Positions 5,483 to 29,828 are shown, numbered from the stretch's first letter. The stretch is DNA of 40,892 bases from a virus (IMGVR_UViG_3300022748_000009:1-40892); one strand, 5' to 3'. Made by a program: numbers and translations. Notes: generated from the letters alone by a model not told the origin.

Positions 5483-5515
5483 GGTGACCGTAATACAAAG
5501 CACTGTGGATAGATT
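5483..5515 (+). promoter_or_regulatory. Copy 2 of the GGTGACCGTA-N17-TAnnnT motif
   Basis: GGTGACCGTA at 5483-5492, 1 nt after the stop at 5479-5481. TAGATT at 5510-5515. Shares CTTGATGGTGACCGTA with copy 3. Confidence 0.5.
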
Positions 5516-5521
5516 GACAAC

Positions 5522-5869
5522 ATGAGTAACAGCTACGACCCAACTGATGTGCAAGCGCAAGAGCGCAAAGTCTCCGAAAAAGAGATTCGCGAGCGCAACG
5601 CAGCCAAGAACGAAGAAGCTGACCTCAAGTGGCTCATGGGCAGTCGGAGGGGTCGCCGAATCATCGGTCGACTTCTGGAGCAATCAGGCGTGTACAGGCT
5701 ATCGTTCAACACCAACTCGATGCAAATGGCATTCGCAGAAGGTAACAGGAACTTTGGCAACCGCATGTTAGCGATGCTTCACGCTCACTGCCCAGAGCTT
5801 TACATGCAACTACTCAAGGAGCAATCCAATGGAATCGCTGATGACGGACACAGCCGCAACGACCACTGA
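5522..5869 (+). CDS. Bbp19-like conserved phage protein
   Basis: WLMGSRRGRRIIGRLLEQSGVYRLSFNTNSMQMAFAEGNRNFGNRMLAMLHAHCPELY matches my memory of the Bbp19 family of BPP-1-like phages. There is no SD; the ATG lies 6 nt after the TAGATT hexamer. Confidence 0.65.
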   Translation: MSNSYDPTDVQAQERKVSEKEIRERNAAKNEEADLKWLMGSRRGRRIIGRLLEQSGVYRLSFNTNSMQMAFAEGNRNFGNRMLAMLHAHCPELYMQLLKEQSNGIADDGHSRNDH

Positions 5870-6503
5870 AGGTACGGCCTCATCGCAAGACGCTGCCAGC
5901 ACTACGCCGCAAGGTGGAGAGCAGACAGCGAACCAGCAGCAAGCCAATGCTGACCAGAACCAGACTAGCACTCAGGACAGTGCAAAGGATGGGGCTGCTG
6001 ATGGCAACACGGAAGGCAAACCTCAAGGTGCGCCTGAAAAATACGAGTTCAAAGCCCCCGAAGGCAAAGAGTTCGATTCCGAAACGCTGAACGCATTTTC
6101 GGAGGTTGCCAAAGAAGCCAATCTGTCGCAGGAAGCCGCGCAGAAACTGCTCGACAAGATGGGGCCAACATTGGCTCAACGTCAAATGGAGCAGTTTGAG
6201 AGTATCAAGAATGACTGGGCGCAATCAGCGCAAACAGACAAAGAGTTCGGAGGCGAAAAGCTGAACGAAAACTTGGCTGTTGCAAAGAAAGCTCTGGACT
6301 CTTTTGGCACTCCCGAACTACGCACGCTGCTTAATGAGTCTGGCTTGGGAAATAACCCCGAAGTGATTCGGTTTATGTACCGAGCTGGCAAGGCAATCAG
6401 TGAAGACAAGTTTGTTGGTTCAACGACTGGTGCAAACCCTCGCGGTGCGCCCAAATCGTTTAACGATCAAGCCTCGGCACTCTATTCAAATCAGCAATCT
6501 TAA
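5829..6503 (+). CDS. Scaffolding protein (putative)
   Basis: AAGGAG (5817-5822) lies 6 nt before the ATG. Acidic, Q-rich, low-complexity N-terminus followed by a helical region. The gene sits immediately upstream of the major capsid gene. Confidence 0.6.
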   Translation: MESLMTDTAATTTEGTASSQDAASTTPQGGEQTANQQQANADQNQTSTQDSAKDGAADGNTEGKPQGAPEKYEFKAPEGKEFDSETLNAFSEVAKEANLSQEAAQKLLDKMGPTLAQRQMEQFESIKNDWAQSAQTDKEFGGEKLNENLAVAKKALDSFGTPELRTLLNESGLGNNPEVIRFMYRAGKAISEDKFVGSTTGANPRGAPKSFNDQASALYSNQQS

Positions 6504-6515
6504 AAGGAAATCAAA

Positions 6516-7535
6516 ATGGCAACTCTTGCTACTACCTCCCTGACCTTGGCCGATTGGGCCAAACGTACCGACCCCGATGGTCGCATTCCAATCGTTGCAG
6601 AATTGCTCTCGCAATCGAACGAAATTCTCGAAGACTGCGTGTTCAAAGAAGGCAACTTGCCTACTGGTGATCGCGTTGTGATTCGCACTGGCTTGCCCAC
6701 CGTCTACTGGCGTGCATTGAACCAAGGTATCCCAAACAGCAAATCGACCACTGCTCAAGTGGACGAGGCTTGCGGCATCTTGGAAGCTCGCTCTGAAGTC
6801 GACAAAGACTTGGCAATGTTGAACGGCAACACCGCTCAATTCCGTTTGTCTGAAGACACAGCTTTCTTGGAAGCTATGAACCAGACTCAAGCCACGACTT
6901 TGTTCTACGGCAACCCAGCAACTGACCCCAAGCAATTCTTGGGTTTGGCCGCTCGCTACTCTAGCCTGTCTGCTTCTAACGCTCAAAACATCTTGAGCGC
7001 TGGTGGTTCTGGCTCTGACAACACATCCATCTACTTGGTGGTGTGGGGTGACAACACTGTGTACTGCCCTTTCCCTAAAGGTTCTAAGGCTGGTTTGATT
7101 CACGAAGACCTCGGCGAGCAAACCGTGTACAACAGCGATAGCACTCGCTTGCAAGCCTACGCTACTCGCTACCAATGGAAGAACGGTCTTGTTGTGAAAG
7201 ACTGGCGCTATGTGGTTCGCATCGCCAACATCGATGTGAGCGACTTGGTTGGCCAGACTGGCACTCAAGCCTCTACCGCTGCAACCGCTGTCATCAAATT
7301 GATGGCTCGCGCTTTGTATCGCATTCCAAACATGGCAATGGGCCGCGCAGCTTTCTACATGAACCGTACCGTTCACTCTGGTTTGACTGTTGCAGCTATG
7401 GACAAGAGCCAGTACGTTTTGAAGATCAATGAGGGCTTGTCTCAGTTCGGCACACCATATAGCTGGTTGTCGTTCTTGGGCGTTCCTCTGCGCCGTGTTG
7501 ACGCGATCTTGAACACTGAATCTGTTGTCAGCTAA
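6516..7535 (+). CDS. Major capsid protein
   Basis: A 339-aa ORF with SD AAAAGGAAATC, positioned after the scaffold gene. N-terminus TLADWAKRTDPDGRIPIVAELL is of the BPP-1-type capsid family (from memory). Confidence 0.8.
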   Translation: MATLATTSLTLADWAKRTDPDGRIPIVAELLSQSNEILEDCVFKEGNLPTGDRVVIRTGLPTVYWRALNQGIPNSKSTTAQVDEACGILEARSEVDKDLAMLNGNTAQFRLSEDTAFLEAMNQTQATTLFYGNPATDPKQFLGLAARYSSLSASNAQNILSAGGSGSDNTSIYLVVWGDNTVYCPFPKGSKAGLIHEDLGEQTVYNSDSTRLQAYATRYQWKNGLVVKDWRYVVRIANIDVSDLVGQTGTQASTAATAVIKLMARALYRIPNMAMGRAAFYMNRTVHSGLTVAAMDKSQYVLKINEGLSQFGTPYSWLSFLGVPLRRVDAILNTESVVS

Positions 7536-7588
7536 AACTCAGGAGGGGGCTAACGCCTCCTCCATTCAAACCCTGAAAGGAAATTCAA

Positions 7589-8020
7589 ATGATTACCGAT
7601 AAACTCCTCCGTGTCTCCGAAGCACAAGCCATCACTGGTGACGCAGCCTCTACCAACACCATCGACCTGTTGACTGCACAGGACATCGGTGAAGGCAAGC
7701 CTTTGTACGCCGTGTTCACTGTGACTGAAGCATTCAACAACTTGACAAGCATCTTGTTTGAAGTCATCAGCTCTGCCAACGCAGACTTGTCTTCTCCCAC
7801 AATCTTGTCTATGCAGAGCCAGCTTTTGGCTGCTTTGACTGTTGGCGCTCAGTTCGTTGTTGTGGTTCCTCCTCAAGTTGCCTCTTTGGGCAAGCGTTAC
7901 TTGGGTGCGTACTATGATGTGACTGGTACAAACCCATCGACTGGCAAGGTGACTTGCGACTTCGTTGAGACTATCCAAGACGGCAAGAAGTTCTACGCTT
8001 CTGGCTTCACTGTTGCTTAA
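7589..8020 (+). CDS. Capsid cement/decoration-like protein (Bbp16-like, putative)
   Basis: A 143-aa ORF directly after the capsid gene with SD AAAGGAAATTC. It looks beta-rich, and position and size fit a cement protein. Confidence 0.5.
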   Translation: MITDKLLRVSEAQAITGDAASTNTIDLLTAQDIGEGKPLYAVFTVTEAFNNLTSILFEVISSANADLSSPTILSMQSQLLAALTVGAQFVVVVPPQVASLGKRYLGAYYDVTGTNPSTGKVTCDFVETIQDGKKFYASGFTVA

Positions 8021-8038
8021 ATTTAAGGAGACTGCATC

Positions 8039-8233
8039 ATGGCTAAATGTCGCGTGTTAGCAAAGTCCTTCATCAACAACGCCATCCGTGAGGAAGGCGA
8101 CATCGTTGAGTACGAAGGCAAACTGGGTACTAACCTAGAATTGGTCGAAGAGGAAGATGCCCCCGCCAAACCCACTAAGAAGTGGAAAAAAGGCGAAGCG
8201 GCTGAACCGACTGAAACTGCTGACGCAGAATAA
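8039..8233 (+). CDS. Small acidic/lysine-rich protein, unknown
   Basis: A 64-aa ORF with SD TAAGGAGAC 7 nt upstream. It is the last gene before a strong terminator. Confidence 0.65.
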   Translation: MAKCRVLAKSFINNAIREEGDIVEYEGKLGTNLELVEEEDAPAKPTKKWKKGEAAEPTETADAE

Positions 8234-8266
8234 GCTCGGTGTAGTTCTTCTTTTTTGAAGGCATCG

Positions 8267-8301
8267 GGGGTGGCTGTGGGAAACCGTAGTCACCCCTTTT
8301 T
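8267..8301 (+). terminator. Rho-independent terminator after the capsid gene block
   Basis: A 13-bp stem (8267-8279 pairs with 8284-8296, including three G-U pairs), a GAAA loop, then TTTTT at 8297-8301. Confidence 0.8.
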
Positions 8302-8315
8302 CTTAGGAGCCTGAC

Positions 8316-8996
8316 ATGGCCAGCGAAATCGATATTTGTAACCTAGCCCTTGGACACCTTGGCGATACAGCCACAGTGTCGAGTATCAAGCCGCCTGAAG
8401 GCTCGGCACAATCACAGCACTGCGCTCGGTTCTATCCGATTGCGCGTGACACACTTTTTGAGATGCACGCATGGGGCTTTGCCACCAAGCGCGTGTCGCT
8501 CGCTGCATTGACCAGCGCATGGCCTGAGTGGGACTACTGCTATGCATTGCCGTCTGATGTGGCCAACTTGCTGGCTGTCATCCCACCTGACGCGAATGAC
8601 GACTACTCATCGCACTTTGTGCCAACAGACACACCATTCACATCGGCCAACTTCGCGCCTGTGGTGGCTGCTGGCCGCTATGTGCCACAAGACTTTTCGT
8701 CTGAGATTCTGGAAGACGGCACTGAGGTCATCTACACAGACCAGCAAGACGCTGTGCTGCGCTACACGGCCATCATCACAGACCCAACCAAGTTCTCGCC
8801 ACTGTTCACCATGACGCTGTCTTGGCACTTGGCATCGATGCTGGCTGGCCCAATCATCAAGGGCGATGCTGGCGCTGCTGAAGCCAAGCGATGCACAGCC
8901 ATGATGCAGGGCTACTTGGCTCGCGCAACATCGTCTGATGCCAACCAACGCAAAGCCAACCCGCAGCAGATCGTTGGCTGGATGGCTGGGAGATAA
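8316..8996 (+). CDS. Head-tail adaptor (T7 gp11-like, putative)
   Basis: N-terminus ICNLALGHLGDTATVSSI...ARFYPIARDTLFEMHAWGFA resembles the gp11/tail tubular protein A pattern. The gene sits directly upstream of a nozzle-sized gene. Confidence 0.55.
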   Translation: MASEIDICNLALGHLGDTATVSSIKPPEGSAQSQHCARFYPIARDTLFEMHAWGFATKRVSLAALTSAWPEWDYCYALPSDVANLLAVIPPDANDDYSSHFVPTDTPFTSANFAPVVAAGRYVPQDFSSEILEDGTEVIYTDQQDAVLRYTAIITDPTKFSPLFTMTLSWHLASMLAGPIIKGDAGAAEAKRCTAMMQGYLARATSSDANQRKANPQQIVGWMAGR

Positions 8997-8998
8997 GC

Positions 8999-9358
8999 AT
9001 GGCCACATTACCTGTCCTCGATTTGGCTGCGGCCGCATTCACTCAAATCGTCCACAAGCCAAACACAAAGAACGAGTTTGACCCAGAAGGTCAAGACTAC
9101 GACTACGAGGCTGCAATGGCCGCTGGCATGGGGCCAACAGGCACAGGTGAAAACCTTGGCCACTGGGGTTCTGTGCGCGAAGCCACTGACGCTGAAAAGC
9201 ACAAGCATGGTTTGCCTGACGAAAGCTACTTGATGCTCAAAGGCAAAGCCCATGAGTCATGGGACAAAGCTGTGGCTGGCGAAGAAGAGCGCGGCTTCAC
9301 GGTCAAGAAGTTCGGTGACCGCTACTACTCAATCCCAAATGAACAAGGAGCCGATTGA
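8999..9358 (+). CDS. Hypothetical virion-module protein
   Basis: A 119-aa ORF, tightly packed, whose stop overlaps the next start (ATGA). Confidence 0.65.
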   Translation: MATLPVLDLAAAAFTQIVHKPNTKNEFDPEGQDYDYEAAMAAGMGPTGTGENLGHWGSVREATDAEKHKHGLPDESYLMLKGKAHESWDKAVAGEEERGFTVKKFGDRYYSIPNEQGAD

Positions 9359-11685: not shown

Positions 11686-11686
11686 T

Positions 11687-11719
11687 GGTGACCGTATAAA
11701 TCAACCAAAAAGATAACCT
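11687..11719 (+). promoter_or_regulatory. Copy 3 of the GGTGACCGTA-N17-TAnnnT motif
   Basis: GGTGACCGTA at 11687-11696, 1 nt after the stop at 11683-11685. TAACCT at 11714-11719. GGAG (11729-11732) and ATG 11740 follow. Confidence 0.55.
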
Positions 11720-11739
11720 GAACGCACTGGAGAATAGGT

Positions 11740-12414
11740 ATGGCGGGAACCTCAACACCTTCGTGGGCAAACTGGACAAGCAGCCCAGAAACATACGGCG
11801 CTTCAACGCCGAAAGCTGCAAACACTGCCGAAATGTTTCAAACGGTTGGCCCCATCTTGGCTATTGCTGGGATGGCCACCAGTGCCATTGGCGCGTACTA
11901 CGCAGCCAAGACACAGCAATACCAGCTTGAATCTCAGGCTTTGACAAACGACTTCCAAAAGTCAATGTCAGAGCTGAATGCCAAGAATGCTGAGTTCACC
12001 GCGCAAACCATCTTGGAGTCTGGCCAGCGCCAGATCGGAGCCGTCACAATGCGTGCTGGGAATGTCAAAGGTGCGGCTCGCGCATCGATGGCAGCTCGCG
12101 GCATTCAGGCTGGCGTAGGCTCCGCTGCTGACGTTATCGCAACAACCGACCTCATGAAAGAGGTTGACGTGAACACGATCAATGCTCGCTCGGTTCAAGC
12201 AGCCGAAGCCCAGCGCATGGCCGCTGTCAATTCGCAGAACCAAGCCATGATGGCTGGCGTGTCTGCCGACAACGCTCGCATGGGCGCGTCAACGATCAAC
12301 CCATTCATGGCTTCGACTGGCTCGTTGCTTGGCAGCGCAAGCACAGTTGCTTCTGCCTACTACCAAGACAAGCGCATGGCCGCATACGAAAACTGGCTGG
12401 CCAAACAGCAATAA
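11740..12414 (+). CDS. Internal virion (core) protein A-like
   Basis: A 224-aa protein with a hydrophobic segment (VGPILAIAGMATSAIGAYYAA) and an Ala/Gln-rich helical remainder. It is the first of three genes in the position of T7 gp14-16. Confidence 0.55.
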   Translation: MAGTSTPSWANWTSSPETYGASTPKAANTAEMFQTVGPILAIAGMATSAIGAYYAAKTQQYQLESQALTNDFQKSMSELNAKNAEFTAQTILESGQRQIGAVTMRAGNVKGAARASMAARGIQAGVGSAADVIATTDLMKEVDVNTINARSVQAAEAQRMAAVNSQNQAMMAGVSADNARMGASTINPFMASTGSLLGSASTVASAYYQDKRMAAYENWLAKQQ

Positions 12415-12424
12415 AGGGAAACAC

Positions 12425-14590
12425 ATGCCAACCGTACCAATGCTTGACACACCATCTCAGTCGCTCGATGCGGCTCAGATGCCAAACTTCACGGCCGCTG
12501 GCGTGGAGCCAATGAAGAACTTTGCGCCAGAGCAGATGAGCAAAATGGGCGCTGGCATGACCACCGCTGGCACGACCCTCATGAAGATTGGGCAAAGCAT
12601 CCAAAACGACTTAGATGATGCCAACACTAAGGCGATGGTCACATCATTCAGCGCAAACGCTCAAGCCATCTTGATGGACAAGGACGCTGGCTACCTGACC
12701 ACAGCGCAAGGCAAGAGCGCCAAAGATCGCTACGCAGCCACGCAAGAGGCGATGCTCAAAGCTCGCAAAGATGCCGAGGCTGGCCTTGAAAACGAATTTC
12801 AGCGCAAGATGTTTGCTCAGTCTGTGGACAAGCAGATGCTGCAATTCAAAGGCCAGATGGACTTGCACGCCGTCAAAGAGGTGCGCCAATACGAGAAGAA
12901 AGAGTCTGAGGCTTTCGTCAACAACCAAGCCGACTTGGCCATCAAGTCGTATGGCGTGCGCGATCAAAAAGATCAGACTGGCCGTGTGAACAACCTGTAC
13001 ACATCGAGCGTGGCCACAGGCTTGCAGACCATCGTGGACGACTTTGCCAAGGACGGCATCGCCGAAGACTCTGAGCAGGTCAAGCAAGCCAAGCAAAAGT
13101 TCACCAGCTATGTTGCAACTGGCGCAGCCACAGACATGATGCTGAACAACAAGTTCATTGAAGCACGCAAGTTTGTAGATGGCGCGTACAAGAGCGGCGA
13201 CCTCGATAGCAAGACAGCGCAGACCCTGTACAAGCAGATCGATGCTGGCTACAACAAAGAAGTGGCCACAGGTGCTGGCGACAAAATCTTCACATCGCGT
13301 GGCCCGACAGGCACTGACTTTGACAGCATCTCTGGCTGGACTATGTCGAAGGATGTCGAGGGCGGCTATGTGGCCAACGATGCTGGCAAAGGCCCGACCA
13401 ACTACGGCATCAACGGCGCTGCTTACTTTGGCGTGAAAGCCGAAGAGCTGACTGACACGCAAAAGAATTTCATCGCCAACCTGACACCAGAGAAGGCCAA
13501 GGAAATCTACCGCAAGCGCTACTGGGATGCCATCGATGCCGACAAGCTCGACCCGCGCATGCGTGCTGTTGCGTTTGATGCGGCCGTGAACCAAGGCCCA
13601 GAGACTGCCAAGCGATTGCTGGCAGAGGCTGGCAACGACCCAGAGAAGATGATCGAGCTGCGCCGCGCAGAGTACAAGAAGCTCATCAAGAGCAACCCAG
13701 AGAAGTTCGCTCAATACGAGAAGAGCTGGATGGGCCGCCTCGACAAGCTGGAGGCCAGCATCACTGGCACGCGCTCATTGTCAAGCATGCTGACCGAGGC
13801 CGACCAGATCGCAGACCCAGAGGTTCGCGACATGACGCGCCAGCGCATCAAAAACAAGTGGAGCGAAGACGAAGCGGTCAAGCGTGCAGACTATGCAGAG
13901 AAGCTGGGCAGCGCGTATGACATCGCATTCGCAAAGCTGGGTGGCTGGCGCGACATCCCTGCGCCTATGTGGGCCGACATCAAGCCAGAAGACCGCGCTC
14001 GCATGATGAACCCACCAAAGGCTGACGACCCAAGCACATTGTTTGAGCTTGAGATGAACCCAGAGCTGTGGACGAAAGAGTCCATGATGGAACGCCGTGG
14101 GCTGTTGACTGAGTCGACATTCCGCAAGTTCTATGAGCTTGGCAACGCGCCCGATTACAAAGAGAAGGTGCGCTCTGTGACGATTGACAACAAGCGTTTT
14201 TCTACCGTGATGGCTGATGCTGGCCTAAAAGACATCATGGACAGGAAAGACAAAACTGAAGTCAATCGAATCATTGGGACAATGCAAGACATCATCAGCG
14301 CAGAGCAGGTCATCAAGAAGCGACCACTCACGATGGAAGAGAAAGACTCGATCATGAAGTCTGTCGTGAAGCCTGTGAAGATTCGCGCATTGCGCGACTG
14401 GACTCCATCTTTCCTTGGGTTAGATCAAACCACAGACGAAGTCCCATACTACAAAGTCAAAGATACTCGCAACGTCATCATCCCAGACAAAGTGCGAAAT
14501 CAAATCATTGCCGACTTCACGCGCAATGGTGTCAAGTACGATGAGAAGACAATCTTCAACGCCTACATGAAAATGGAAGACCAAAAATGA
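12425..14590 (+). CDS. Internal virion protein with a GH108-type muramidase domain
   Basis: ATG 12425 follows AAAGGGAAACAC. DVEGGYVANDAGKGPTNYGI...RYWDAIDADKLDPRMRAVAFDAAVNQGPETAKRLL (about 13350-13750) matches the glycoside hydrolase 108 signature. Confidence 0.75.
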   Translation: MPTVPMLDTPSQSLDAAQMPNFTAAGVEPMKNFAPEQMSKMGAGMTTAGTTLMKIGQSIQNDLDDANTKAMVTSFSANAQAILMDKDAGYLTTAQGKSAKDRYAATQEAMLKARKDAEAGLENEFQRKMFAQSVDKQMLQFKGQMDLHAVKEVRQYEKKESEAFVNNQADLAIKSYGVRDQKDQTGRVNNLYTSSVATGLQTIVDDFAKDGIAEDSEQVKQAKQKFTSYVATGAATDMMLNNKFIEARKFVDGAYKSGDLDSKTAQTLYKQIDAGYNKEVATGAGDKIFTSRGPTGTDFDSISGWTMSKDVEGGYVANDAGKGPTNYGINGAAYFGVKAEELTDTQKNFIANLTPEKAKEIYRKRYWDAIDADKLDPRMRAVAFDAAVNQGPETAKRLLAEAGNDPEKMIELRRAEYKKLIKSNPEKFAQYEKSWMGRLDKLEASITGTRSLSSMLTEADQIADPEVRDMTRQRIKNKWSEDEAVKRADYAEKLGSAYDIAFAKLGGWRDIPAPMWADIKPEDRARMMNPPKADDPSTLFELEMNPELWTKESMMERRGLLTESTFRKFYELGNAPDYKEKVRSVTIDNKRFSTVMADAGLKDIMDRKDKTEVNRIIGTMQDIISAEQVIKKRPLTMEEKDSIMKSVVKPVKIRALRDWTPSFLGLDQTTDEVPYYKVKDTRNVIIPDKVRNQIIADFTRNGVKYDEKTIFNAYMKMEDQK

Positions 14591-17500
14591 GCGCTTATGA
14601 CGACTACATCTCGCAACTGAAAAAAGAGCAAGACCGCAGCACAGCACTTGCTACTTCTTTGGGTGACGCTGTTGACACAAACCCAAACGACTTTGCCGAG
14701 ATGAAGCGCCTGTCGCGTGCGGCAGACATGAGCATCGAAGCAGTCCCAGAGTTCAAGTCTGAGGCGAAGACAGCAAAGCTGTTACAAGACGTTGGCGGCG
14801 CTGACAAGTTTTGGAAAGAAGCGCCACGCACTTCCAACTTCTTGGTCAATCCAGACAACTCGAAAATCTCGCATGACCAGATGCAGAACATGGGCCAATT
14901 TGAGCGCACGTTCCGCATGTTCGGTGGAAGCATGGAAGAAGGCGCTGGCATGAGTGTGAGCGGCGTTGGCCGCATGCTTGAGATTGCACAGCGCAATACC
15001 ATCGAAGGCTTTGCCAACATGTTTTTGCCAGAGCCACAGAAAGGCCCAACTGGCATCCAGCCATCAAAGCCAACTGCTGATTCGCTCATCGGCCCAATGC
15101 TTGGCGAAGACTGGGTGACAGTCGGTAAAAAACTCAAAGATCAAGCCAAAGATGAAATCATGGTTCCAGCGAGCCAGCAAACATTCATCGACAAAGTAAC
15201 TGGCGGTGTTGGCCAAGTTGCTGGCCAAGCCATCACTCACATTTTGACTGGCGGTTTTGTAAGCGGCCTCAACTTGTGGGCGCAAGGCGTTGACACGGTC
15301 TACGATAAGGTTGAAAAAGACAAAGCAGCCCAAGGGTACAAAGACATTGCCGCGCTCGGTGGCGGTGCTGTTACAGCTTTGACAGAGCGCTGGGCATTGG
15401 ACAAGATGCTTGGCCCATTGGCTGTGCCAGTAAAAAATCAAGTTGCTGCCGTGCTTGCTCGTATTGGTGTTGCAACAGCATCTGAGGGTGGCCAAGAATT
15501 TACGGAGAACATTCTTCATGACACATTACGCAAGGCGCTCACTAACCGCGATGCCGAAATTGATTTTGGACAAGCAGGTGAAGAGGGTACTGTCGGTGCT
15601 GCTGTTGGTGGCACTGTCCGTTCTATCGTTGAAGCAGCCCTTCACATTAAACGCCGCACGTCAAGAGCAGAAGAAGTTGAGCGCAAAACGCAAGTCCTCG
15701 AAACATTAAACAACTTGGCTGCGGCCAATGAGGTTCGCTCGCGTGACGCTGAAACATTTGAGAGCTGGATTGACCAAGTGTCAGAAGACAGCCCAGTGCA
15801 AAACGTCTACTTGAGCAGCGATGTGCTGCGCCAATCTGGCTTGGCTGAGAGCTTGGTGAAAGCTGCGCCAGCGTTTGAGGATGCCATCAAAGAATCGTTG
15901 TCCACTGGCCGCGAGCTGGAGATTCCTGTCGCTGACTACATGAAGGTCATTGCACCAACAGAACTCAGCTCTCAGATCATTGACGACCTCCGCATCGAGG
16001 GCGAAACAATGACTCGCCGCGAAGCTCGCGAGTACATCGAGGTCGAGTCTAAAAAGCTCGAAGCTCAAATTGAAGAGCGCGTCAAAGCCGCACAGCAAGA
16101 CGAAGGCTTCATCAAATCCAGCAAAGAAGTGCAGCAGGTCATGTTTGACCAGATCAAAGCGACTGGCATCTATCCTGCCAACGTGGCTCGCGATCAATCG
16201 TTCTTCCAAGCCAAGGTGTATGAGAACCTCGCCGCTCGCTTGGGCATGACGCCAATGGAAGCGTACAACGCATTCCCGAACGTCATCGCCAAAGACGAAG
16301 GTGGCATGATGGTCGAAGGCGACCAGATGTTCAACCAGCGCGGCGAGATTCAGCCTGAGTCGACAGCATTCAAGGAGTTCTTCAAGGACACCAAGATTGT
16401 TGACAAAGAAGGCAAGCCGCTGAAGATGTACCACGGCACAGCCCAGAACATTCACCAGTTCCGCGCAAAGCAAGCTGGCGCAATCTTCACCACACCAGAC
16501 CCTGAGTTCGCCGATGACTACACGGAGATGAGCAAGGACTGGATGGTCGACCACTACGATGAGATTCTGAGCCGCCAAGAAGTCGAGGCGGCAATGAATG
16601 TTGCGGCACAACGCATTCGCGAAGAGTTTGCAAACGACCCAGACAAGGCTGAAATCCTTGAGCATGAGATGCGTGTTGGCGACAGGTTGACAAACATCAA
16701 GGCACGCAGCATCTTCAACAAGGCGATTGCCGAGCAGATGCCATCTGGCCCGAACATCATGCCTGTGTACGTCAATGCGACCAATCCGTTTGACTACCAA
16801 AACCCAGAGCATGTGGCCGCTGTTGTGGCCGAGATGAACAAGCAGACCGACACTTGGGGCCGTCCTCGCGGTGATGCCGCCAAGAACTTCTTGGCATCTG
16901 GCAACTGGGAAGAGATCGAGAAGACTCGCACGCAAGATGCAATCAAGGCGCTTGGCTTTGATGGCTTCTATGTGAAAGAGGGTAAGCACAAAAACCTTGC
17001 CGTCTACAACTCGAACCAAGTCAAGTCGGTGTTCAACCAGAACCCAACTGAGTCGCCAGAAATTCTTAACCAAAGAGGTAAAGGAAAAGTCGCGACTGAG
17101 GATGCGTTTGACGAAGACGCTTTGAAGTTGGAAGACGAGATCGCTGACGCTGGCGGTGAAGTCAAGGATGTGATGCAAGTCGATCAGTTGCTCGACAGCA
17201 AAGACATCCCGATCATCACGATGCAAGACCTCGTTGGCATGAACATCTTCCCAACGATTGCTGACCGCACTGCCGCTGCTGCGCTGTACACAGGCATCGA
17301 CTCATCGCAAATCAACTTGGCCATCCCATTGCTCGGCGGCCCATTCTTTCCGCTTCGCCTCACCAACGCTCTGTCCAACATCGTGTGGGCAAACCGTGGC
17401 AAGGGAGTGACATCTCAGAAGGCTGCAAAGCTGAAAGAGGGCGCGAACTACATGATGGTGTTGATGGGTGATGCAGACATGCACCAGTCCAACAGCACAG

Positions 17501-20500
17501 TGGCTGCTGCTTTCATCTCCACGCTTGAGGCATGGAATCGTGATGGCCGCATCACCAAGAAAAACGTCAAGGCACTTGGCGAGCTGGTGAAAGAGACTGG
17601 CGCAAAAGCCGTGGCTCTGTCAAAAGAAAAGCTGGCCGTGGCTGAAGCAGAGCTGGCCGCAGCCAAGACAGACAAGGAAATTGAGAAGGCAAGAAAAGCA
17701 GTCGCCAAAGACAAGAAGGCGATTGCCACCAACCAGTACATCGAGAACTTTGTTGGCTTTGAAGACTCGGCCGCGCTGCACCAGTACATGGACGGCATCT
17801 CGTTTGACGCTCGCAAGCGCGTGCTTGAAGTGATGGCCAGCAAGCAAGCTCTTGATCTTGGCGCACCTCCAATGGCACGCATCTTGGAGGCGACACGCGA
17901 GCCAAGTCTGGCTGGCCATCGCTGGGGTGACGGTGTCATCTTGCTTGAGGTCGACCAAGAGTCGCCACAGGTTGACCTTGGCACTGAAGGCACAACGCCT
18001 CACCCAGACTTCCCTGTTGGCATCCGTGGCCGTGTGGTTGGCAAGATGAACGCGCCAATCAACTACGAGCTGCTGTGGCAAGACTGGATGGCAGAAAACT
18101 CAGACAAGGCATCACCACGCCGCGCATTTGAGTTGAGCAAGCCCATCGTCAGCGTCACTCAAGAGCTGGTCGACAGCATCGGGCCAATCGTTCAAAAGAA
18201 CATCAGCTCGGCAAAGCAAGCACGCCTCGCGGCTGACTTTGCTGCCAACAACTGGAAGACATCGGACGATGCCAAGAAGGACGGCGGCGTATCTCCGCAA
18301 GAGTTCTTGGATGCAATCGACAACTCGCCAGCCAAGAATGTGCTGGGCAAGTACACCCTGTCTGAGCTGAAAAAGGGCATCAAAGACAAGACCATGAAGG
18401 TCTTCCAGCTAGGCGATGGCCAAGCGTTTTTCTTGCTCAAGACTGAGGGTGAGCGCGTCATCTTGGACACTTGGGTGGCCAATGAGCAGGGCGCAAACGG
18501 CATCATTGAGCCAGCCATCATGCTCAAGGCAATCAGCGAAGGCGCAACCGAGGTGAGCAGCTACGCCGTCAAGAGCGCCGAGTTCCCACAAGGCTTCTTG
18601 CCCACGCTGTACAGCGCCTTTGGCTTCACAGAAAACGGCAAAACACAGCCACTTTCTAAGCTGAAACTTACAAGCAAACAACTCGCTGACACGGTAAAAT
18701 ACTGGGCAGAGAGCAACACAGGTTTTGATGCAGCCAACGGCATGCCAGAACTTGTCACTATGGAGTGGAAACATGGAAAAGAACAACGAGAAGGCATCAT
18801 CGAGCGCTATCTCCAAAGCGGCTTTGCAAGCCTTTACTCAGGAGGAGTTGACGCAAATGCCGAAGCAGCTTCGTCTGAGTTTGATGACGATAATCAGCAG
18901 CAGGTTGAACAGGCACGACTTGCCAACTCCATCGAAAGAGGAATTGCTGGGTATCAAGAAAATGCTGCTCAACCACTTGACGCAGCCGCAACTCAACGAG
19001 TTGTCCAATCGATTGCCAGCCTAACTGACAATGAACTCAAGAATCTTGGCCTGACTTCAGAAGACAGAGCTTCGGTTCAAAAGGTCATTGGCCAGATGTC
19101 TGGCGTGCTTAACCAACGCGCCACACCGCAAAGCCTCGCAGAGAAATCTCGCACAGAATCATCGGCAAAGACTGGTTTGCTCAACCAGACAAACCGTGGC
19201 GGCTTTGCACCAAGCACATTGACCACCATCCTCACCAAAGAGGCTGACTACTCCACGCTGCACCATGAGACTGTCCACTTCGTTGTGGAGGCGTACACAC
19301 GCATCGCGCAGCAAGAGAACGCGCCAGCTCAGATCGTTGCCGACTTGGAGGCGCTCATCAAGTTTGGTGGCGTTGACAGCATCGAGCAATGGAATACCAT
19401 GAGCTTGGAGGAGCGCCGTCCAGCGCAAGAGGCCATCGCATACGCCTCAGAGATTTACTTCTTTGAGGGCAAGGCTCCAAGCGTTGAGCTTGAGTCTGTG
19501 TTTGACCGTCTGGCTCAGTGGATGCGCGACATCTACACATCAATCGTGGACGAGTTGAACGCCATGTACAAGCAAGAGTTTGGCAAGGATTTGCCGATCT
19601 TGAATGACGAAGTGCGCTCGGTGTTTGACCGCATGCTGGCCAGCGATAAGCAAATCCAGCAAGCGCAGGAAATCCGCGACATGGTTCCAATGTTCCAGAC
19701 TCAAGAAGAGTCAGGCATGGATGACGCGCAATGGCAAGCCTACAAGGCGATGGCCGATGAGGCAGACCAAGCTGGCGTGATGGATTTGACAAAGGCATCG
19801 TTGCGCCAAATCAAGTGGCTCGACAACGCACGCAGCAAGCTGCTCAAAGAGATGCAGAAGAAGACCGCAGCCCAGCGCAAGATCGTGCGCGAGCAGGTCG
19901 AGGAAGAGGTCAACAACGACCCTGTCTACATGGCAATCAACTTTCTCAAGCGCGGCGAGACAAAAGATGCTGACGGCAACCCTATCAAGGTGACGCAGGG
20001 CCACAAGCTCTCGTTGGCCGAAGTCAAAGCCCTCTACCCAGAGAGCGACACTAGCCTTGCCGCAGCACCCGACTTCACCACGCTTGGCTATGGCAAATAC
20101 GGCATGCTTGGTGAGCAGGGCATCTCGCCTGACTTGGTAGCTGGCATGTTCGGCTTCCAGTCTGGTGACGCTCTGGTGCGCTCGCTGGTCGATGCCAAGC
20201 CAATCAAAGAAGAGATCGAGGCTCGCACTGACCAACGCATGCTTGAAGAGCATGGCGAAATGTTTGACCCCAAGAGCGTTGACGCTGAAATCGAAAAGGC
20301 TCTGCACAACGAGGCACGCGCTCGTTTTGTGGCCGTAGAGTTGCGCTTCTTGGCCAAAGCCACGGCTCCTGTGCGCCTGATGCTGCAAGCCGCCAAGAAA
20401 GCAGCAAAGCAGATCATCACCAACAAGAAGGTCGGCGACATCAACCCTCGCGAATACTCCATCGCCGAAGGCCGCGCCGCAAAGCAAACAACTGCCGCCA

Positions 20501-23124
20501 TGAAAAAGGGCGACAGCTTGGCCGCGCAAAAAGCAAAGCAGCAACAACTACTCAACAACCAGTTGGCCGCGCAAGCCATCGAGGCCAAGGCCGAGATCGA
20601 CAAAGCCATCGATGGGTTCCGCAAGCTGTTCCGCTCTGACGAGAAGATCGCCAAGGGTCGCAACATGGACTTGGTCAACGCCGCTCGCGCCATCCTTGGC
20701 TACTACGGCATCGGCCCCAAGGGCAAGTCACCGCTCGACTTTATCGACACGCTGCGCTCATACAACCCAGACTTCTACGCCGACATCGAGCCGTTGATTC
20801 TGGAGGCTGCAAGCGGTTCCAAGCCATACACAGAGATGACCCTCGATGAGTTCCGCAGCTTGAACGATGCGATCAACTCGTTGTGGTTCCAATCAAAGCG
20901 CGACAACGAAGCGATGATTGAGGGCCGCATGGTTTCCATCGAGCAAATTCGCGGAGAGTTGGTTGGCCGTCTTGAAGAGATTGGCATCCCAGAAGTGGTG
21001 GCGGGTGAGCAAGCGCCGTTCACCAAAAAAGAAAAGTTCATGAAGCGCCTGTTGAACATCAAGGCGATTGGTCGCCGTGTTGAATACTGGGCAGACTCGA
21101 TGGACGGCTCCGCAGGTGGCAAGGCATTCACGCAATACATCTGGCGACCAGTGCGCCATGCGTTGGACAACTACCGTATTGACCGCAACAAGTACGTCAG
21201 CCAGTACGTTGACATGGTTGCAAAGCTCACGCTTGGCAAAGGCAAGATCGATGCAAGCGAAGAGATCGGCTACACGTTTGGCGATGAAAACGGCGGCAGC
21301 GGCAAAGCTGAATTGCTGGGCGCGATGCTGCACATGGGCAACGAATCCAACTTTAAGAAGCTGCTGGTCGGCCGTGGCTGGGGTTCAATCAACCAGAACG
21401 GCGTGCTGGACGCATCACGTTGGAATGCTCTCATCAACCGCATGATCGCTGAAGGCCATCTCACCAAGGCTGACTTCGACTTCTTGCAGTCGGTGTGGGA
21501 CTTGAACGAGGAAATCAAGCCTCTAGCCCAGAAGGCTCACCACGACATGTTTGGCTACTACTTCAAAGAAGTTGAGGCCACACCGCTGGTTACTCCGTTT
21601 GGCACTTACCGTGGTGGCTACGTCCCAGCGAAGACCGACCCAGACATGGTGCGTGACGCGCAAAAGAATGCCAAGATGGAGGCGCTGGAAAGCGACTTCC
21701 GTCAGTCCATGCCAAGCACTGGCCTTGGCTTCACCAAAGGCCGTGTCGAATACAACAAGCCGCTGTCGCTTGACCTGCGCGTGATGACCAAGCACATAGA
21801 TGACGTGATTCGTTTTGCTCATGTGCAACCAGCCATCAAGGACGTGCTGAAGATCATTCGCAGCCGCGACTTTGCAGACAACCTGTCTCGCATCGACTCA
21901 GAGGTTGTGGAGGGTATGTTGCTGCCGTGGCTCAACCGCGCAGCTCGCCAGATCACCAGCGAGGTTGGCCTGAACTCATCCATCGACAACTTCTGGCGCA
22001 CCGTGCGTCAGCGCACTGGCGTGGCCATCATGTTCGGCAACTTGAGCAACGCGCTGCAACAGTTCACTGGCCACTTCTTGACTGGCGTGAAGGTTGACAA
22101 GAGCAACATGAAAGCTGCGTTGGCCATGTACATGAAGAGTCCAAACTCTGTGACTCAGGGCGTTGTTGAGGCTTCCAAGTTCATGGAAGATCGCTTGAAG
22201 AATCAAATCTTTGACATTCAAGACAACCTCAACCAGTTGCTGCTGAACCCCACAAAGTTTGAAAAAGTGCAAGCATGGACAAACCAGCACGGCTACTTCT
22301 TGCAGACTGCATTTCAAAACCAAGTGGACATCGTTGCATGGGTTGGCGCGTACAACCAAGCGCTTGAGCAGCTCGGCTCTGGATATGACAATGCAGAGGC
22401 TCACGCCGAAGCAGTCCATCGCGCTGACGCTGTGGTGCGTATGACGCAGTCAAGCCTGACCGCAGAAGACAAATCTGCCTTCGAGGTTGGCACGCCGTTC
22501 ATGGCCACACTGCTTCAGTTCTCTGGCTACTTCAACATGATCGCCAACTTGAACGCCACGGAGTTCACAAAGATTTTCCGTGATTTAGGTTGGCGCGGCC
22601 ACAAGGGCATGCTGTTCCAGAAGTACCTGCTTGGCTTTGCCTTGCCGATGATCGTGGCCGATGCCATCGTTCGCACGCTTGGCGGTGGCTGGGATGACGA
22701 AGACGATGACGGCTACCTTGACGAGTTCATGGAGTGGTTCTTTGGCTCTCAGATCAAGGGCGCTGTGGCTATGGTTCCAGTGCTTGGCCCAGCCGTGTGG
22801 TCGCTCACCAACGTGGCCAACGACAAACCATACGATGACAAAATGTCATCAAGCCCAGCCGTGTCTACGCTCGAAGGTTCGACATTTGGCGTGGCCAAGG
22901 CAGCAATCAACCTTGTTGACAAAGACAAGGAAGTCACAGGAAAGAACGTAAGGGACGTTCTGACTGCAATCAGCTTGGCCACTGGCGTGCCAGTCGCAGT
23001 GCTTGGCCGACCAGTTGGCTACGCTGTTGACGTGAACCGTGGCAAAGTAAATCCAACCAGCAAAGCTGACTACGCTCGCGGCCTAATCACAGGCAAGGCA
23101 AGCGAAGAGTCAGTGAAGAAGTAA
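14587..23124 (+). CDS. Giant (2845 aa) polyvalent internal virion/ejection protein
   Basis: One uninterrupted ORF whose ATG overlaps the upstream stop (ATGA). It contains an ART-PolyVal-like region (MYHGT...AIFTTPDPEFADDY...MPVYVNATNPFDY...NLAVYNSNQVKSVF) and an HExxH region (ADYSTLHHETVHFVVE). The C-terminus has an acidic patch and hydrophobic segments. Confidence 0.9.
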   Translation: MSAYDDYISQLKKEQDRSTALATSLGDAVDTNPNDFAEMKRLSRAADMSIEAVPEFKSEAKTAKLLQDVGGADKFWKEAPRTSNFLVNPDNSKISHDQMQNMGQFERTFRMFGGSMEEGAGMSVSGVGRMLEIAQRNTIEGFANMFLPEPQKGPTGIQPSKPTADSLIGPMLGEDWVTVGKKLKDQAKDEIMVPASQQTFIDKVTGGVGQVAGQAITHILTGGFVSGLNLWAQGVDTVYDKVEKDKAAQGYKDIAALGGGAVTALTERWALDKMLGPLAVPVKNQVAAVLARIGVATASEGGQEFTENILHDTLRKALTNRDAEIDFGQAGEEGTVGAAVGGTVRSIVEAALHIKRRTSRAEEVERKTQVLETLNNLAAANEVRSRDAETFESWIDQVSEDSPVQNVYLSSDVLRQSGLAESLVKAAPAFEDAIKESLSTGRELEIPVADYMKVIAPTELSSQIIDDLRIEGETMTRREAREYIEVESKKLEAQIEERVKAAQQDEGFIKSSKEVQQVMFDQIKATGIYPANVARDQSFFQAKVYENLAARLGMTPMEAYNAFPNVIAKDEGGMMVEGDQMFNQRGEIQPESTAFKEFFKDTKIVDKEGKPLKMYHGTAQNIHQFRAKQAGAIFTTPDPEFADDYTEMSKDWMVDHYDEILSRQEVEAAMNVAAQRIREEFANDPDKAEILEHEMRVGDRLTNIKARSIFNKAIAEQMPSGPNIMPVYVNATNPFDYQNPEHVAAVVAEMNKQTDTWGRPRGDAAKNFLASGNWEEIEKTRTQDAIKALGFDGFYVKEGKHKNLAVYNSNQVKSVFNQNPTESPEILNQRGKGKVATEDAFDEDALKLEDEIADAGGEVKDVMQVDQLLDSKDIPIITMQDLVGMNIFPTIADRTAAAALYTGIDSSQINLAIPLLGGPFFPLRLTNALSNIVWANRGKGVTSQKAAKLKEGANYMMVLMGDADMHQSNSTVAAAFISTLEAWNRDGRITKKNVKALGELVKETGAKAVALSKEKLAVAEAELAAAKTDKEIEKARKAVAKDKKAIATNQYIENFVGFEDSAALHQYMDGISFDARKRVLEVMASKQALDLGAPPMARILEATREPSLAGHRWGDGVILLEVDQESPQVDLGTEGTTPHPDFPVGIRGRVVGKMNAPINYELLWQDWMAENSDKASPRRAFELSKPIVSVTQELVDSIGPIVQKNISSAKQARLAADFAANNWKTSDDAKKDGGVSPQEFLDAIDNSPAKNVLGKYTLSELKKGIKDKTMKVFQLGDGQAFFLLKTEGERVILDTWVANEQGANGIIEPAIMLKAISEGATEVSSYAVKSAEFPQGFLPTLYSAFGFTENGKTQPLSKLKLTSKQLADTVKYWAESNTGFDAANGMPELVTMEWKHGKEQREGIIERYLQSGFASLYSGGVDANAEAASSEFDDDNQQQVEQARLANSIERGIAGYQENAAQPLDAAATQRVVQSIASLTDNELKNLGLTSEDRASVQKVIGQMSGVLNQRATPQSLAEKSRTESSAKTGLLNQTNRGGFAPSTLTTILTKEADYSTLHHETVHFVVEAYTRIAQQENAPAQIVADLEALIKFGGVDSIEQWNTMSLEERRPAQEAIAYASEIYFFEGKAPSVELESVFDRLAQWMRDIYTSIVDELNAMYKQEFGKDLPILNDEVRSVFDRMLASDKQIQQAQEIRDMVPMFQTQEESGMDDAQWQAYKAMADEADQAGVMDLTKASLRQIKWLDNARSKLLKEMQKKTAAQRKIVREQVEEEVNNDPVYMAINFLKRGETKDADGNPIKVTQGHKLSLAEVKALYPESDTSLAAAPDFTTLGYGKYGMLGEQGISPDLVAGMFGFQSGDALVRSLVDAKPIKEEIEARTDQRMLEEHGEMFDPKSVDAEIEKALHNEARARFVAVELRFLAKATAPVRLMLQAAKKAAKQIITNKKVGDINPREYSIAEGRAAKQTTAAMKKGDSLAAQKAKQQQLLNNQLAAQAIEAKAEIDKAIDGFRKLFRSDEKIAKGRNMDLVNAARAILGYYGIGPKGKSPLDFIDTLRSYNPDFYADIEPLILEAASGSKPYTEMTLDEFRSLNDAINSLWFQSKRDNEAMIEGRMVSIEQIRGELVGRLEEIGIPEVVAGEQAPFTKKEKFMKRLLNIKAIGRRVEYWADSMDGSAGGKAFTQYIWRPVRHALDNYRIDRNKYVSQYVDMVAKLTLGKGKIDASEEIGYTFGDENGGSGKAELLGAMLHMGNESNFKKLLVGRGWGSINQNGVLDASRWNALINRMIAEGHLTKADFDFLQSVWDLNEEIKPLAQKAHHDMFGYYFKEVEATPLVTPFGTYRGGYVPAKTDPDMVRDAQKNAKMEALESDFRQSMPSTGLGFTKGRVEYNKPLSLDLRVMTKHIDDVIRFAHVQPAIKDVLKIIRSRDFADNLSRIDSEVVEGMLLPWLNRAARQITSEVGLNSSIDNFWRTVRQRTGVAIMFGNLSNALQQFTGHFLTGVKVDKSNMKAALAMYMKSPNSVTQGVVEASKFMEDRLKNQIFDIQDNLNQLLLNPTKFEKVQAWTNQHGYFLQTAFQNQVDIVAWVGAYNQALEQLGSGYDNAEAHAEAVHRADAVVRMTQSSLTAEDKSAFEVGTPFMATLLQFSGYFNMIANLNATEFTKIFRDLGWRGHKGMLFQKYLLGFALPMIVADAIVRTLGGGWDDEDDDGYLDEFMEWFFGSQIKGAVAMVPVLGPAVWSLTNVANDKPYDDKMSSSPAVSTLEGSTFGVAKAAINLVDKDKEVTGKNVRDVLTAISLATGVPVAVLGRPVGYAVDVNRGKVNPTSKADYARGLITGKASEESVKK

Positions 23125-23157
23125 GGTGACCGTAACTATGCAGCCAATGTTTAGCCT
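23125..23157 (+). promoter_or_regulatory. Copy 4 of the GGTGACCGTA-N17-TAnnnT motif
   Basis: GGTGACCGTA at 23125-23134, immediately after the stop at 23122-23124. TAGCCT at 23152-23157. AGGAG and ATG 23185 follow. Confidence 0.5.
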
Positions 23158-29025: not shown

Positions 29026-29492
29026 CTCAACTCACCGCGCACTTCAGCCTCGAAGAGCTGACACACACCGACCACCGCGAGCTGGACAACACGCCAACCA
29101 CGGCCGAGCATTGCATCATCGATGGCAAGGAAGTCATCGTGAACGCATACGAGAATCTGCCGCGCTTGGCTGCATTCTTGGAGCAGGTCAAGGTTGTGTT
29201 GGGTGGCAAAGCAATCTTTGTCAACAGCGGCTTTCGCTCGCACGCTGTGAACACGGCAGTTGGCTCAAAGGACACCAGCGACCATCGCCGTGGCTGCGCT
29301 GCTGACATCCGTGTTGACGGCATGACACCAGACCAAGTGACCCGCGCCATCATCGCAAGCGACCTGCCATACCAGCAAGTCATTCGCGAGTTTGACCGCT
29401 GGACTCATGTGGCCATCACAACAAACGAGGGCGACACCCCCAAGAAATCGAAGCTCATCATTGACAAGGCTGGCACACGACCCTTTGCCTGA
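29022..29492 (+). CDS. Endolysin, peptidase M15 family (zinc D-Ala-D-Ala carboxypeptidase / L-Ala-D-Glu peptidase type)
   Basis: FSLEEL...VNSGFRSHAVNTAVGSKDTSDHRRGCAADI...FDRWTHVA matches the H...D...H metal ligand pattern of M15 peptidases. Confidence 0.8.
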   Translation: MTQLTAHFSLEELTHTDHRELDNTPTTAEHCIIDGKEVIVNAYENLPRLAAFLEQVKVVLGGKAIFVNSGFRSHAVNTAVGSKDTSDHRRGCAADIRVDGMTPDQVTRAIIASDLPYQQVIREFDRWTHVAITTNEGDTPKKSKLIIDKAGTRPFA

Positions 29493-29542
29493 TATACTGG
29501 CATCGGTTCTTACATGCAGTTGCTCTCTCCATGTAGGTTGTG

Positions 29543-29578
29543 AAAGCCCCAGCCGTAAAAAGCTGGGGCTTTTCTTTT
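29543..29578. terminator. Hairpin terminator between the convergent arms
   Basis: AAAGCCCCAGC (29543-29553), an 8-nt loop, then GCTGGGGCTTT (29562-29572) followed by TCTTTT. The T tract overlaps the stop of the minus-strand lipoprotein gene. Confidence 0.8.
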
Positions 29579-29828
29579 ACCACTTAGGGGCGCAGGTGAC
29601 CTCGGCCACAATCTCTGTGGTGTACCCATTGATCTTGCGCTTTGCGTAGAGCATGACGGCTCTCAGGCCGTTTGTTTCACACTCGCGCACGGCGACAATG
29701 ATCTCGTTGCGTGACATGGGCTGCACTTTGTTGTCCAGCACCAGCTCCTGCTCTGTCAGTTTTGGTTGGCTTGAGCAGCCAGCCATCACCAGCGCGGCCA
29801 TGATGAAAAATAATTTTTTCATGCTCAC
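29577..29828 (-). CDS. Lipoprotein, unknown function (moron-like; last gene of the leftward arm)
   Basis: MSMKKLFFIMAALVMAGCSS has a signal peptide with a lipobox (MAGC). The mature part is about 65 aa with two further Cys. Confidence 0.75.
   Translation of the reverse strand: MSMKKLFFIMAALVMAGCSSQPKLTEQELVLDNKVQPMSRNEIIVAVRECETNGLRAVMLYAKRKINGYTTEIVAEVTCAPKW

Follow-up and report, generated by a model that had tools for sequence, protein, structure and literature searches.

Promoters of the T7 type consist of a single conserved stretch of about 23 bp, which is continuous and extends through the start site. Late activators such as Mor and C of Mu, Ogr of phage P2, Delta of phage P4, Lpa of phage P1 and cII of lambda act at sites that are dyad-symmetric or repeated and are located at -22, about -43 or -55. 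In the middle promoters of T4, a MotA box is combined with a sigma-70 -10 element, and the action of MotA and AsiA is termed 'sigma appropriation' (PMC2988021). The MotA box, (a/t)(a/t)(a/t)TGCTTtA, is centred at -30, and its distance to the -10 element is 12 ± 1 bp (PMC2988021). The subject of this study is a bipartite element that occurs four times in a viral genome of 40,892 nucleotides (IMGVR_UViG_3300022748_000009; this whole stretch is referred to as the window). It consists of the 10-mer GGTGACCGTA, which is called the box, and of a TAnnnT hexamer. Judged by their sequence and conservation, the four elements are very probably promoters. We consider it likely that they are activator-dependent late promoters for the host RNA polymerase, the 10-mer of which would be read by a phage protein; the best candidate for this reader is an 87-aa protein encoded in the same genome. 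The four elements are:

1408-1440, + strand: putative promoter P1, box at 1408-1417, hexamer TAACGT at 1435-1440
5483-5515, + strand: putative promoter P2, box at 5483-5492, hexamer TAGATT at 5510-5515
11687-11719, + strand: putative promoter P3, box at 11687-11696, hexamer TAACCT at 11714-11719
23125-23157, + strand: putative promoter P4, box at 23125-23134, hexamer TAGCCT at 23152-23157

The initial annotation had listed these four exact copies of GGTGACCGTA on the + strand and no exact copy on the - strand, and a search of both strands of the window reproduced the result. In dinucleotide-preserving shuffles the 10-mer occurred on average 0.02 times, and in none of 100 shuffles were four copies reached, which settles the proposed check of the copy number. 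As had also been claimed, TAnnnT follows each of the four copies after exactly 17 nt. Equally correct were the observations that three of the four copies begin 0-1 nt past a stop codon, which agrees with the ends of the open reading frames (ORFs) at 5481, 11685 and 23124, and that two copies share the longer string CTTGATGGTGACCGTA. The first copy (1408) is not intergenic; it lies within ORF 821-1912, in the linker of an Asp/Arg-hydroxylase domain and a GNAT domain. A scan for weaker copies, likewise suggested at the outset, was performed with up to three mismatches and a TAnnnT at a distance of 16-18 nt. It yielded eight additional matches compared to a mean of 12 in shuffles, and none with one or two mismatches. 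These degenerate matches occur only at chance level, and the element is all-or-none in the window.

The nearest database records are Limnohabitans phage DC33, phage zth2-2 and two Manatee Spring podoviruses, which share about 74-78% nucleotide identity with the window in parts of the virion module. The paper describing DC33 places this phage in a novel, unclassified group. DC33 (L001, PQ492659.1), which infects Limnohabitans sp. DCL3, is a tailed podovirus of 39 kb and possesses genes for portal, capsid and terminase; its GenBank taxonomy, Inoviridae (filamentous ssDNA), seems to be a record error. None of these four GenBank relatives contains an exact copy of GGTGACCGTA. Reading of their syntenic intergenic regions revealed variants of the box: DC33 and MW202722 carry GGTACCCGTA, MW202640 carries GGTGCCCGTA, and a TAnnnT is always found after a further 17 nt. 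The four GGTACCCGTA sites of DC33 are located on the - strand, at about 964, 4585, 22241 and 34056 of the GenBank record.

The comparison was extended to 80 IMG/VR loci at portal homologues, 80 at RecT homologues and 11 loci from bacterial genomes. About 100 related phage and prophage loci contain GGT[A/G][A/C/T]CC[G/A]TA-N17-TAnnnT at syntenic positions on the gene strand. In the relatives, GGTACCCGTA, GGTGCCCGTA or GGTATCCGTA is found at the same four junctions as in the window, namely behind the terminase block, ahead of the PHROG 528/scaffold genes, behind the nozzle gene and behind that of the giant protein. Among the relatives, 122 distinct contexts of GGT[AG][ACT]CC[AG]TA were obtained; TAnnnT is located at exactly +17 in 112 of them, and no other offset accounts for more than two. 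A spacing of 16 nt is seen with TAnnnT in two contexts and with a -10-like hexamer in four further contexts of L083 and L084. Nearly all sites (145 of 148) are oriented with the gene strand. The conserved information is confined to the two blocks, and the 17-nt spacer between them is unconserved. The conservation in related genomes that had been recommended as a check is therefore given for both the motif variants and the 17-nt spacing, at the same junctions. A literature search for the motif strings retrieved only unrelated primer sequences.

The spacing of the ORF starts is a marker of the start site that is independent of the motif. At 63 of 118 distinct sites, the ATG or GTG of a long ORF is located 5-8 nt past the hexamer, and at 51 sites the distance is exactly 6 nt. 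Position +7 past the hexamer is an A at 91 of the 118 sites. A transcription start of the sigma-70 type falls there, and the corresponding mRNAs would therefore be leaderless. From these distances, about half of the promoters of this class would be expected to produce leaderless mRNAs. The sites that have no start codon nearby possess leaders with GGAG-type ribosome-binding sites. An example of the first kind is P2, where an ATG (5522) lies 6 nt past the hexamer and a Shine-Dalgarno sequence is absent; for these two reasons the P2 mRNA is predicted to be leaderless. The arrangement TAGATT-N6-ATG, without a Shine-Dalgarno sequence, is kept ahead of the PHROG 528 gene in nearly all relatives among L001-L084. 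Transcription would thus be expected to start about 7 nt past the hexamer, which at P2 is the A of the ATG. The syntenic positions of the bipartite element in the relatives, its fixed spacing, its orientation and its distance to ORF starts strongly support the initial proposal of phage-specific late promoters at the virion and lysis blocks.

The same features bear on the question of whether the element could be another strand-specific signal at gene ends, such as a nick site of the T5/phiKMV type, an RNA processing site or a terminator. Such a signal would be in line with the three copies that adjoin stop codons, with the restriction to one strand and few copies per genome, and with the automatic JGI name of the 87-aa protein, Pin-like recombinase. 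A fixed, unconserved 17-nt spacer to TAnnnT and ORF starts 6 nt further on are, however, unexpected for nick or cleavage sites, and the 87-aa protein has no recombinase catalytic domain. Moreover, the four copies have no RNA structure in common (z-scores of -2.4, +1.7, -0.8 and +2.0), an Rfam search of the sites matched no family, and none of the four sites contains a terminator-type hairpin with a T run. We regard a signal other than a promoter as highly improbable.

Within a genome, all sites carry the same variant of the 10-mer, and the variants differ between genomes. Among the first loci, the following numbers were found:

GGTACCCGTA: 36 loci
GGTGCCCGTA: 24 loci
GGTATCCGTA: 6 loci
GGTGACCGTA: 5 loci
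GGGACCCATA: 4 loci
GGTGCCCATG: 2 loci
GGTACCCATA: 2 loci

On a neighbour-joining tree of the portal proteins, which has no support values and short deep branches, the variants are interspersed. Uniformity within a genome together with interspersed variants is the pattern expected for a phage-encoded reader that co-evolves with its box. We assume with good confidence that a specificity factor encoded by the phage would read the box. A GC-rich clade (L068, L070, L071, L073, L075 and L079) has the same portal and virion module and contains neither the box nor the gene of the 87-aa protein. In this clade, the PHROG 528 gene adjoins or overlaps the gene 5' of it, and a search for repeated 10-mers gave only GC-rich low-complexity repeats and no replacement motif.

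It is conceivable that the promoters are read by a host factor alone, i.e. by an alternative sigma factor or an activator of a betaproteobacterial host. That no phage sigma factor is detectable would fit such an assumption, as would the bipartite layout with a 17-bp spacer, which is general to the sigma-70 family. The box, however, differs among close phages while being uniform within each genome, it is unlike the commonly known consensus sequences of sigma-32, sigma-28, sigma-E and sigma-54, and in one clade it was lost along with the gene of the 87-aa protein. An IMG/VR pattern scan with GGTNNCCGTA-N17-TAGATT points in the same direction: about half of the new matches are single chance sites on unrelated contigs, so that the scan contributes little, and none of 59 unrelated loci with the exact pattern has two or more sites. 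A host factor acting alone is in our view improbable.

In terms of architecture, the element is assigned from its sequence to the sigma-70 class, with the phage-specific 10-mer standing in for the -35 element. With a 17-bp spacer, the 10-mer would occupy positions -39 to -30, which is the place of the -35 hexamer plus its upstream flank. The hexamer 17 bp 5' of the -10 element reads (A/C/T)CCGTA and is unlike TTGACA. The four TAnnnT hexamers of the window agree with TATAAT at three to four of six positions and would represent weak -10 elements of the sigma-70 type, and the host sigma-70 is presumably used. An extended -10 element (TGn) is absent; a T is found at the needed position in only eight of 118 sites. 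A simple sigma-70 promoter scan of the window picked up none of the four sites. Activator dependence is expected because the -10 hexamers are weak and both a -35 element and an extended -10 element are missing. The host holoenzyme alone would presumably not fire at such sites, given a 10-mer unlike TTGACA and no extended -10, and the missing upstream contact may be provided by a monomeric phage protein that binds the 10-mer. In the initial annotation, a dimeric factor had been suggested by the near-palindrome A[C/T]GGTnACCGT. This sequence is present in copies 1-3 and not in copy 4, which reads AAGGT. The relatives do not support a palindromic site bound by a dimer, as the upstream flank is unconserved and most variants, among them the common ones GGTGCCCGTA and GGTATCCGTA, are non-palindromic.

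Of the systems introduced above, the T4 middle promoters are closest in logic. In both cases, a phage box takes the place of the -35 element and is paired with a host-type -10 element TAnnnT, and both phages lack a polymerase of their own and would retarget the host enzyme, as is proposed here for the window. In T4, a monomer reads the asymmetric box, and the likewise asymmetric box described here is proposed to be read in the same way. On the other hand, the box considered here is GGTRNCCGTA, located at -39 to -30 at a rigid distance of 17 bp, compared to 12 ± 1 bp in T4, and it does not vary within a genome, whereas MotA accepts deviating boxes. Homologues of MotA and AsiA are absent according to Pfam scans of the ORFs, and the candidate reader is an 87-aa helix-turn-helix (HTH) protein instead of a double-wing domain. 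The genes served also differ, being late ones (virion and lysis) here and middle ones in T4. With Mor/C, Ogr/Delta, Lpa and cII, the proposed system would share a small phage DNA-binding protein from an earlier operon, late promoters deficient in a -35 element, and host sigma-70. Here, in contrast, the site is a single asymmetric 10-mer at the -35 position with unconserved flanks and is therefore not of the type of Mor, C, Ogr or Lpa; Pfam also detected no match to Mor, Ogr_Delta or related families in the ORFs of the genome. Promoters of the T7 type, as they occur in podoviruses sharing the T7-like virion module, resemble the element in that identical phage-specific copies head the virion blocks and that the variants of relatives differ. 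They can be excluded as a class because the element consists of two blocks with 17 unconserved bp between them and because the complete genome contains no polymerase gene.

The initial annotation had recognised neither a phage RNA polymerase nor a phage sigma factor and had left a blank for the protein that reads the motif. The first statement stands, since Pfam, PHROG and NCBIfam scans of the ORFs of the complete genome found no RNA polymerase, sigma factor, MotA, AsiA, Ogr or Mor. For the blank, a specific candidate can now be named:

39303-39566, + strand: HTH87, candidate reader, 87 aa with a predicted HTH, last gene before the small terminase gene

The gene is located directly 5' of the small terminase gene and overlaps it. 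The corresponding protein of DC33 is XLZ15489.1. Among the early-region genes of the window, it is the only one whose presence matches that of the motif across the long loci. In the loci that cover the region, motif and gene are both present in 34 and both missing in four, and there is no discordant locus. We favour, with moderate confidence, the 87-aa protein, whose HTH may resemble sigma region 4, as the specificity factor, and it is the most probable candidate for the reader. Three other sets of candidates were rejected. The HTH_17/PrtN-like protein (29825-30022, - strand) has a recognition helix that is essentially invariant across genomes with GGTA and GGTG boxes. The DUF7696 zinc-ribbon protein is absent from some motif-bearing loci and shows no column that partitions with the motif. 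The products of 38443-38709 and 34739-34921 do not match the motif in presence and absence; like DUF7696, they are missing from the motif-bearing loci L058 and L078.

The sequence of the 87-aa protein covaries with the box. All genomes whose box combines G at position 4 with CC at positions 6-7 have an Arg as residue 64; in genomes with A4, this residue is K, N, T, Q or L. In the G4 group, H, N, Y or G is found as residue 57, compared to S, A or Q in the A4 group, and residue 60 likewise tracks the box variant. Arg-G and Asn/Gln-A pairs are classic base contacts. No perfectly partitioning column is present in the alignments of portal (565 columns), capsid, scaffold, PHROG 528 and DUF7696.

Homologues of the 87-aa protein with 40-52% identity are encoded in prophage regions of Betaproteobacteria. 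Their boxes were determined de novo, as any 10-mer that recurs with a TAnnnT at +17:

L284, Gallionella: box GGTGCCCGTG, residues 63-65 CRY
L285, Massilia: box GGTATACGTA, residues 63-65 CTY
L280, Polynucleobacter: box AGTGCGCGTA, residues 63-65 CQY
L283, Hydrogenophaga: box GGTGCGCTTA, residues 63-65 CSY

A further prophage (L277), from the chromosome of Dechloromonas sp. ARDL1, possesses an integrase and a different gene order. Its helix AKICRYERR is that of the GGTGCCCGTA phages, and it carries two exact copies of GGTGCCCGTA on the gene strand. As the prophage homologues carry boxes of their own, protein and box of this family travel together beyond the original phage group. In L277, L280, L284 and L285, both are located in bacterial chromosomes. 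It follows from such chromosomal relatives of the group or of the protein and its box, and from the integrase of L277, that part of the phage group is temperate; the window itself encodes no integrase. Two other loci assigned to bacteria, L276 ('Flavobacterium' metagenome-assembled genome (MAG), 40.2 kb) and L282 ('Pirellulaceae' MAG), have portal proteins that are 78% and 70% identical to that of the window and contain the 87-aa protein; in L276, two promoters with GGTGCCCGTA and the PHROG 528 gene are present as well. Both loci have the appearance of phage contigs that were binned into unrelated genomes.

The fold of the 87-aa protein was predicted by means of AlphaFold2. With 63 sequences, a mean pLDDT of 82 was reached, with values of 95-97 in the core; a run with 17 sequences was poor (mean pLDDT 61). 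According to the model, a three-helix HTH (residues 28-40, 45-52 and 56-63) would be clipped by an N-terminal and a C-terminal strand. The HTH core was likened to sigma region 4, HTH_23 and resolvase HTH domains. Searches of Pfam, PHROG and NCBIfam assigned no significant family to the protein of the window. A profile search yielded 2194 representatives (clusters at 50% identity) at E <= 1e-3 and 617 at E <= 1e-10. The members are nearly all stand-alone proteins of 74-190 aa. Among 42 members, 11 match Pfam Sigma70_r4_2 at E <= 0.01; matches of members to HTH_23, HTH_38 and HTH_7 were also obtained. With hhalign, the probability was 91% for region 4 of E. coli sigma-E and 3% for region 4 of sigma-70, the sigma sequences having been entered by hand. 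In Foldseek searches, matches to sigma region 4 had E values of 0.2-0.55 and were no better than those to other HTH domains; the core is about equally similar to IstA, DeoR, ArdK, KorA, resolvase and region 4 of extracytoplasmic function (ECF) sigma factors. In BFVD, full-length matches were obtained to two unnamed or uncharacterised viral proteins, and partial ones to the C-terminal HTH of homing endonucleases. Some family members, namely P0041 (1257 aa), P0069 (602 aa), P0136 and P0162, contain 4-14 tandem HTH units.

Several observations weigh against the 87-aa protein as the reader or against the promoter model. The Foldseek search of the PDB gave no significant match, and the HTH is likewise similar to the DNA-binding tails found in homing endonucleases and in transposases. 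The four loci that have neither motif nor gene all belong to one clade and thus represent a single evolutionary event. The covariation is confounded by common ancestry and linkage, and a few perfectly partitioning columns also occur, in smaller samples, in the products of 38443-38709 and 36266-36433 and in the large terminase subunit TerL, in its N-terminal half. Residues 50-64 vary within one box type; at matched background, their divergence is about 0.5 for pairs with the same box and about 0.65 for pairs with different boxes, which is the expected direction and a weak effect. The rule linking Arg64 to G4 breaks for GCGC-centred boxes, as L280 contains a Gln and L283 a Ser. In L277, the sites precede primase and unknown genes and not virion genes. 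Finally, the paper describing DC33, the only one on a cultured relative, says nothing about promoters.

Part of these findings could be explained if the elements were late promoters whose 10-mer is read by another phage protein, or by a complex to which the 87-aa protein contributes in a different role, for example as a packaging-site or terminase accessory factor. The co-occurrence would then result from the linkage of its gene to the terminase genes. The position next to and overlapping the small terminase gene, the partitioning columns in neighbouring genes and the two prophages that violate the Arg64-G4 rule are in agreement with this explanation, and about half of the small ORFs of the window have no detectable family. 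Against it stand the failure of the remaining early-region genes to follow the presence and absence of the motif, the small terminase subunit, which has an N-terminal DNA-binding region of its own, and the reordered Dechloromonas prophage, in which the protein is nevertheless accompanied by the motif that its helix would predict. We judge this explanation to be unlikely, and the 87-aa protein remains our preferred candidate, which would bind the 10-mer and activate transcription.

How such an activator might work can be outlined tentatively. It is possible, although doubtful, that the 87-aa protein acts as a separate substitute for sigma region 4, which docks on the host RNA polymerase and reads a -35 box of 10 bp. 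It would dock next to region 4 of the primary sigma factor of the host or replace it there, and host sigma region 2 would keep the -10 element. This would amount to a sigma appropriation by one protein, with a sigma factor split between host and phage. Owing to the co-evolution of protein and box, every phage lineage would possess an orthogonal promoter code of its own. Promoters of phage sigma factors (SPO1 gp28 and gp33/34; phiEco32 gp36) and of ECF sigma factors are also bipartite, with phage-specific elements and sigma-like spacing, and the HTH of the candidate may align with region 4 of ECF sigma factors. The -10 element described here, however, keeps the host pattern TAnnnT, and no ORF matches Sigma70_r2 (sigma region 2); only the stand-alone HTH that may resemble region 4 is present. 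The 87-aa protein cannot be a complete sigma factor and, because no region 2 is encoded, the element is not the promoter of a complete phage sigma factor.

Bases 1-127 and 40766-40892 of the window are identical (assembly overlap of a circular contig), and the window therefore represents a complete genome, which is circular and comprises about 40.8 kb. From its start at 40022, the large terminase gene extends across the circular junction. The virion module is T7-like and comprises portal, scaffold/protease, capsid, adaptor, nozzle and internal proteins. A leftward operon contains the RecE/RecT recombination genes. A rightward early operon encodes a Cro-like protein, RusA, SSB, MazG and replication proteins and ends with the small and the large terminase genes, which are not behind a promoter of this class. 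Because the candidate reader is encoded at the far end of this operon, the late genes would be switched on only after the early rightward operon has been transcribed. Two terminator-like structures were found in the late region:

8266-8304, + strand: strong intrinsic terminator with a stem of 14 bp and a T run behind it, located after the capsid genes
29546-29578, + strand: hairpin GCCCCAGC-N8-GCTGGGGC with a T run, after the endolysin gene

P1 is followed by the GNAT, portal and head-accessory genes. ORF 821-1912, in which it is embedded, is uninterrupted and encodes 363 aa, with the hydroxylase domain at residues 86-190 and the GNAT domain at residues 219-362; a separate start of the GNAT protein is likely to be the GTG at 1457. 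At the box, the linker reads TVTVS. In DC33, hydroxylase and GNAT are encoded by two genes, and the hydroxylase gene passes through the box (KVPVS) and stops at the ATG of the GNAT gene. As the box variant alters the encoded residue (Thr or Pro), the P1 promoter evolves under coding constraint.

Downstream of P2 are the genes of the PHROG 528 protein, scaffold/protease and major capsid protein and those following. The P2 unit is closed by the terminator at 8266-8304, with its hairpin at 8266-8297; the same hairpin is also found in DC33. The adaptor and nozzle genes beyond it have no promoter of this class and, lacking one of their own, must depend on read-through. P3, whose leader carries GGAG ahead of the ATG at 11740, precedes the internal virion proteins, including a polyvalent protein of 2845 aa (14587-23124). 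This protein contains ART-PolyVal (ADP-ribosyltransferase) and LPD22 domains and has no detectable domain over most of its length; its counterparts in the relatives comprise about 2800-3200 aa, and it is presumably ejected into the host. P4 has a leader with AGGAG ahead of the ATG at 23185 and is followed by the tail fibre and lysis genes. The hairpin at 29546-29578, which was seen by reading the sequence directly and was not listed by the terminator scan, is likely to be the end of the P4 unit. The + strand ORFs listed within 29392-29922 are probably spurious. On the - strand, an ORF of 83 aa (29577-29828) is lipoprotein-like, with a signal peptide followed by a Cys; together with the HTH_17 protein (29825-30022), it extends the RecET operon.

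The window belongs to an abundant, unclassified group of freshwater podoviruses, which combine a T7-like virion module with the lack of a phage RNA polymerase and of which DC33 is the one cultured member. The timing of late genes in such phages has not been described previously. The analysis yields a promoter model that is precise and predicts both the transcription starts and leaderless late mRNAs. It also names a candidate regulator, predicts the residues of its specificity and supplies a natural series of at least ten matched variants of box and protein. If the proposal is true, the 10-bp box and the 87-aa protein would constitute a compact and apparently orthogonal promoter-activator set for synthetic biology, and the annotation of gene starts and operons in metagenomic phage genomes would be improved. 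It would also assign a function to a protein family of more than 2000 sequence clusters. Given the size of this family (2194 representatives), the mechanism of a sigma region 4 substitute, as outlined above, could be widespread among the phages and prophages of Betaproteobacteria and even outside this group.

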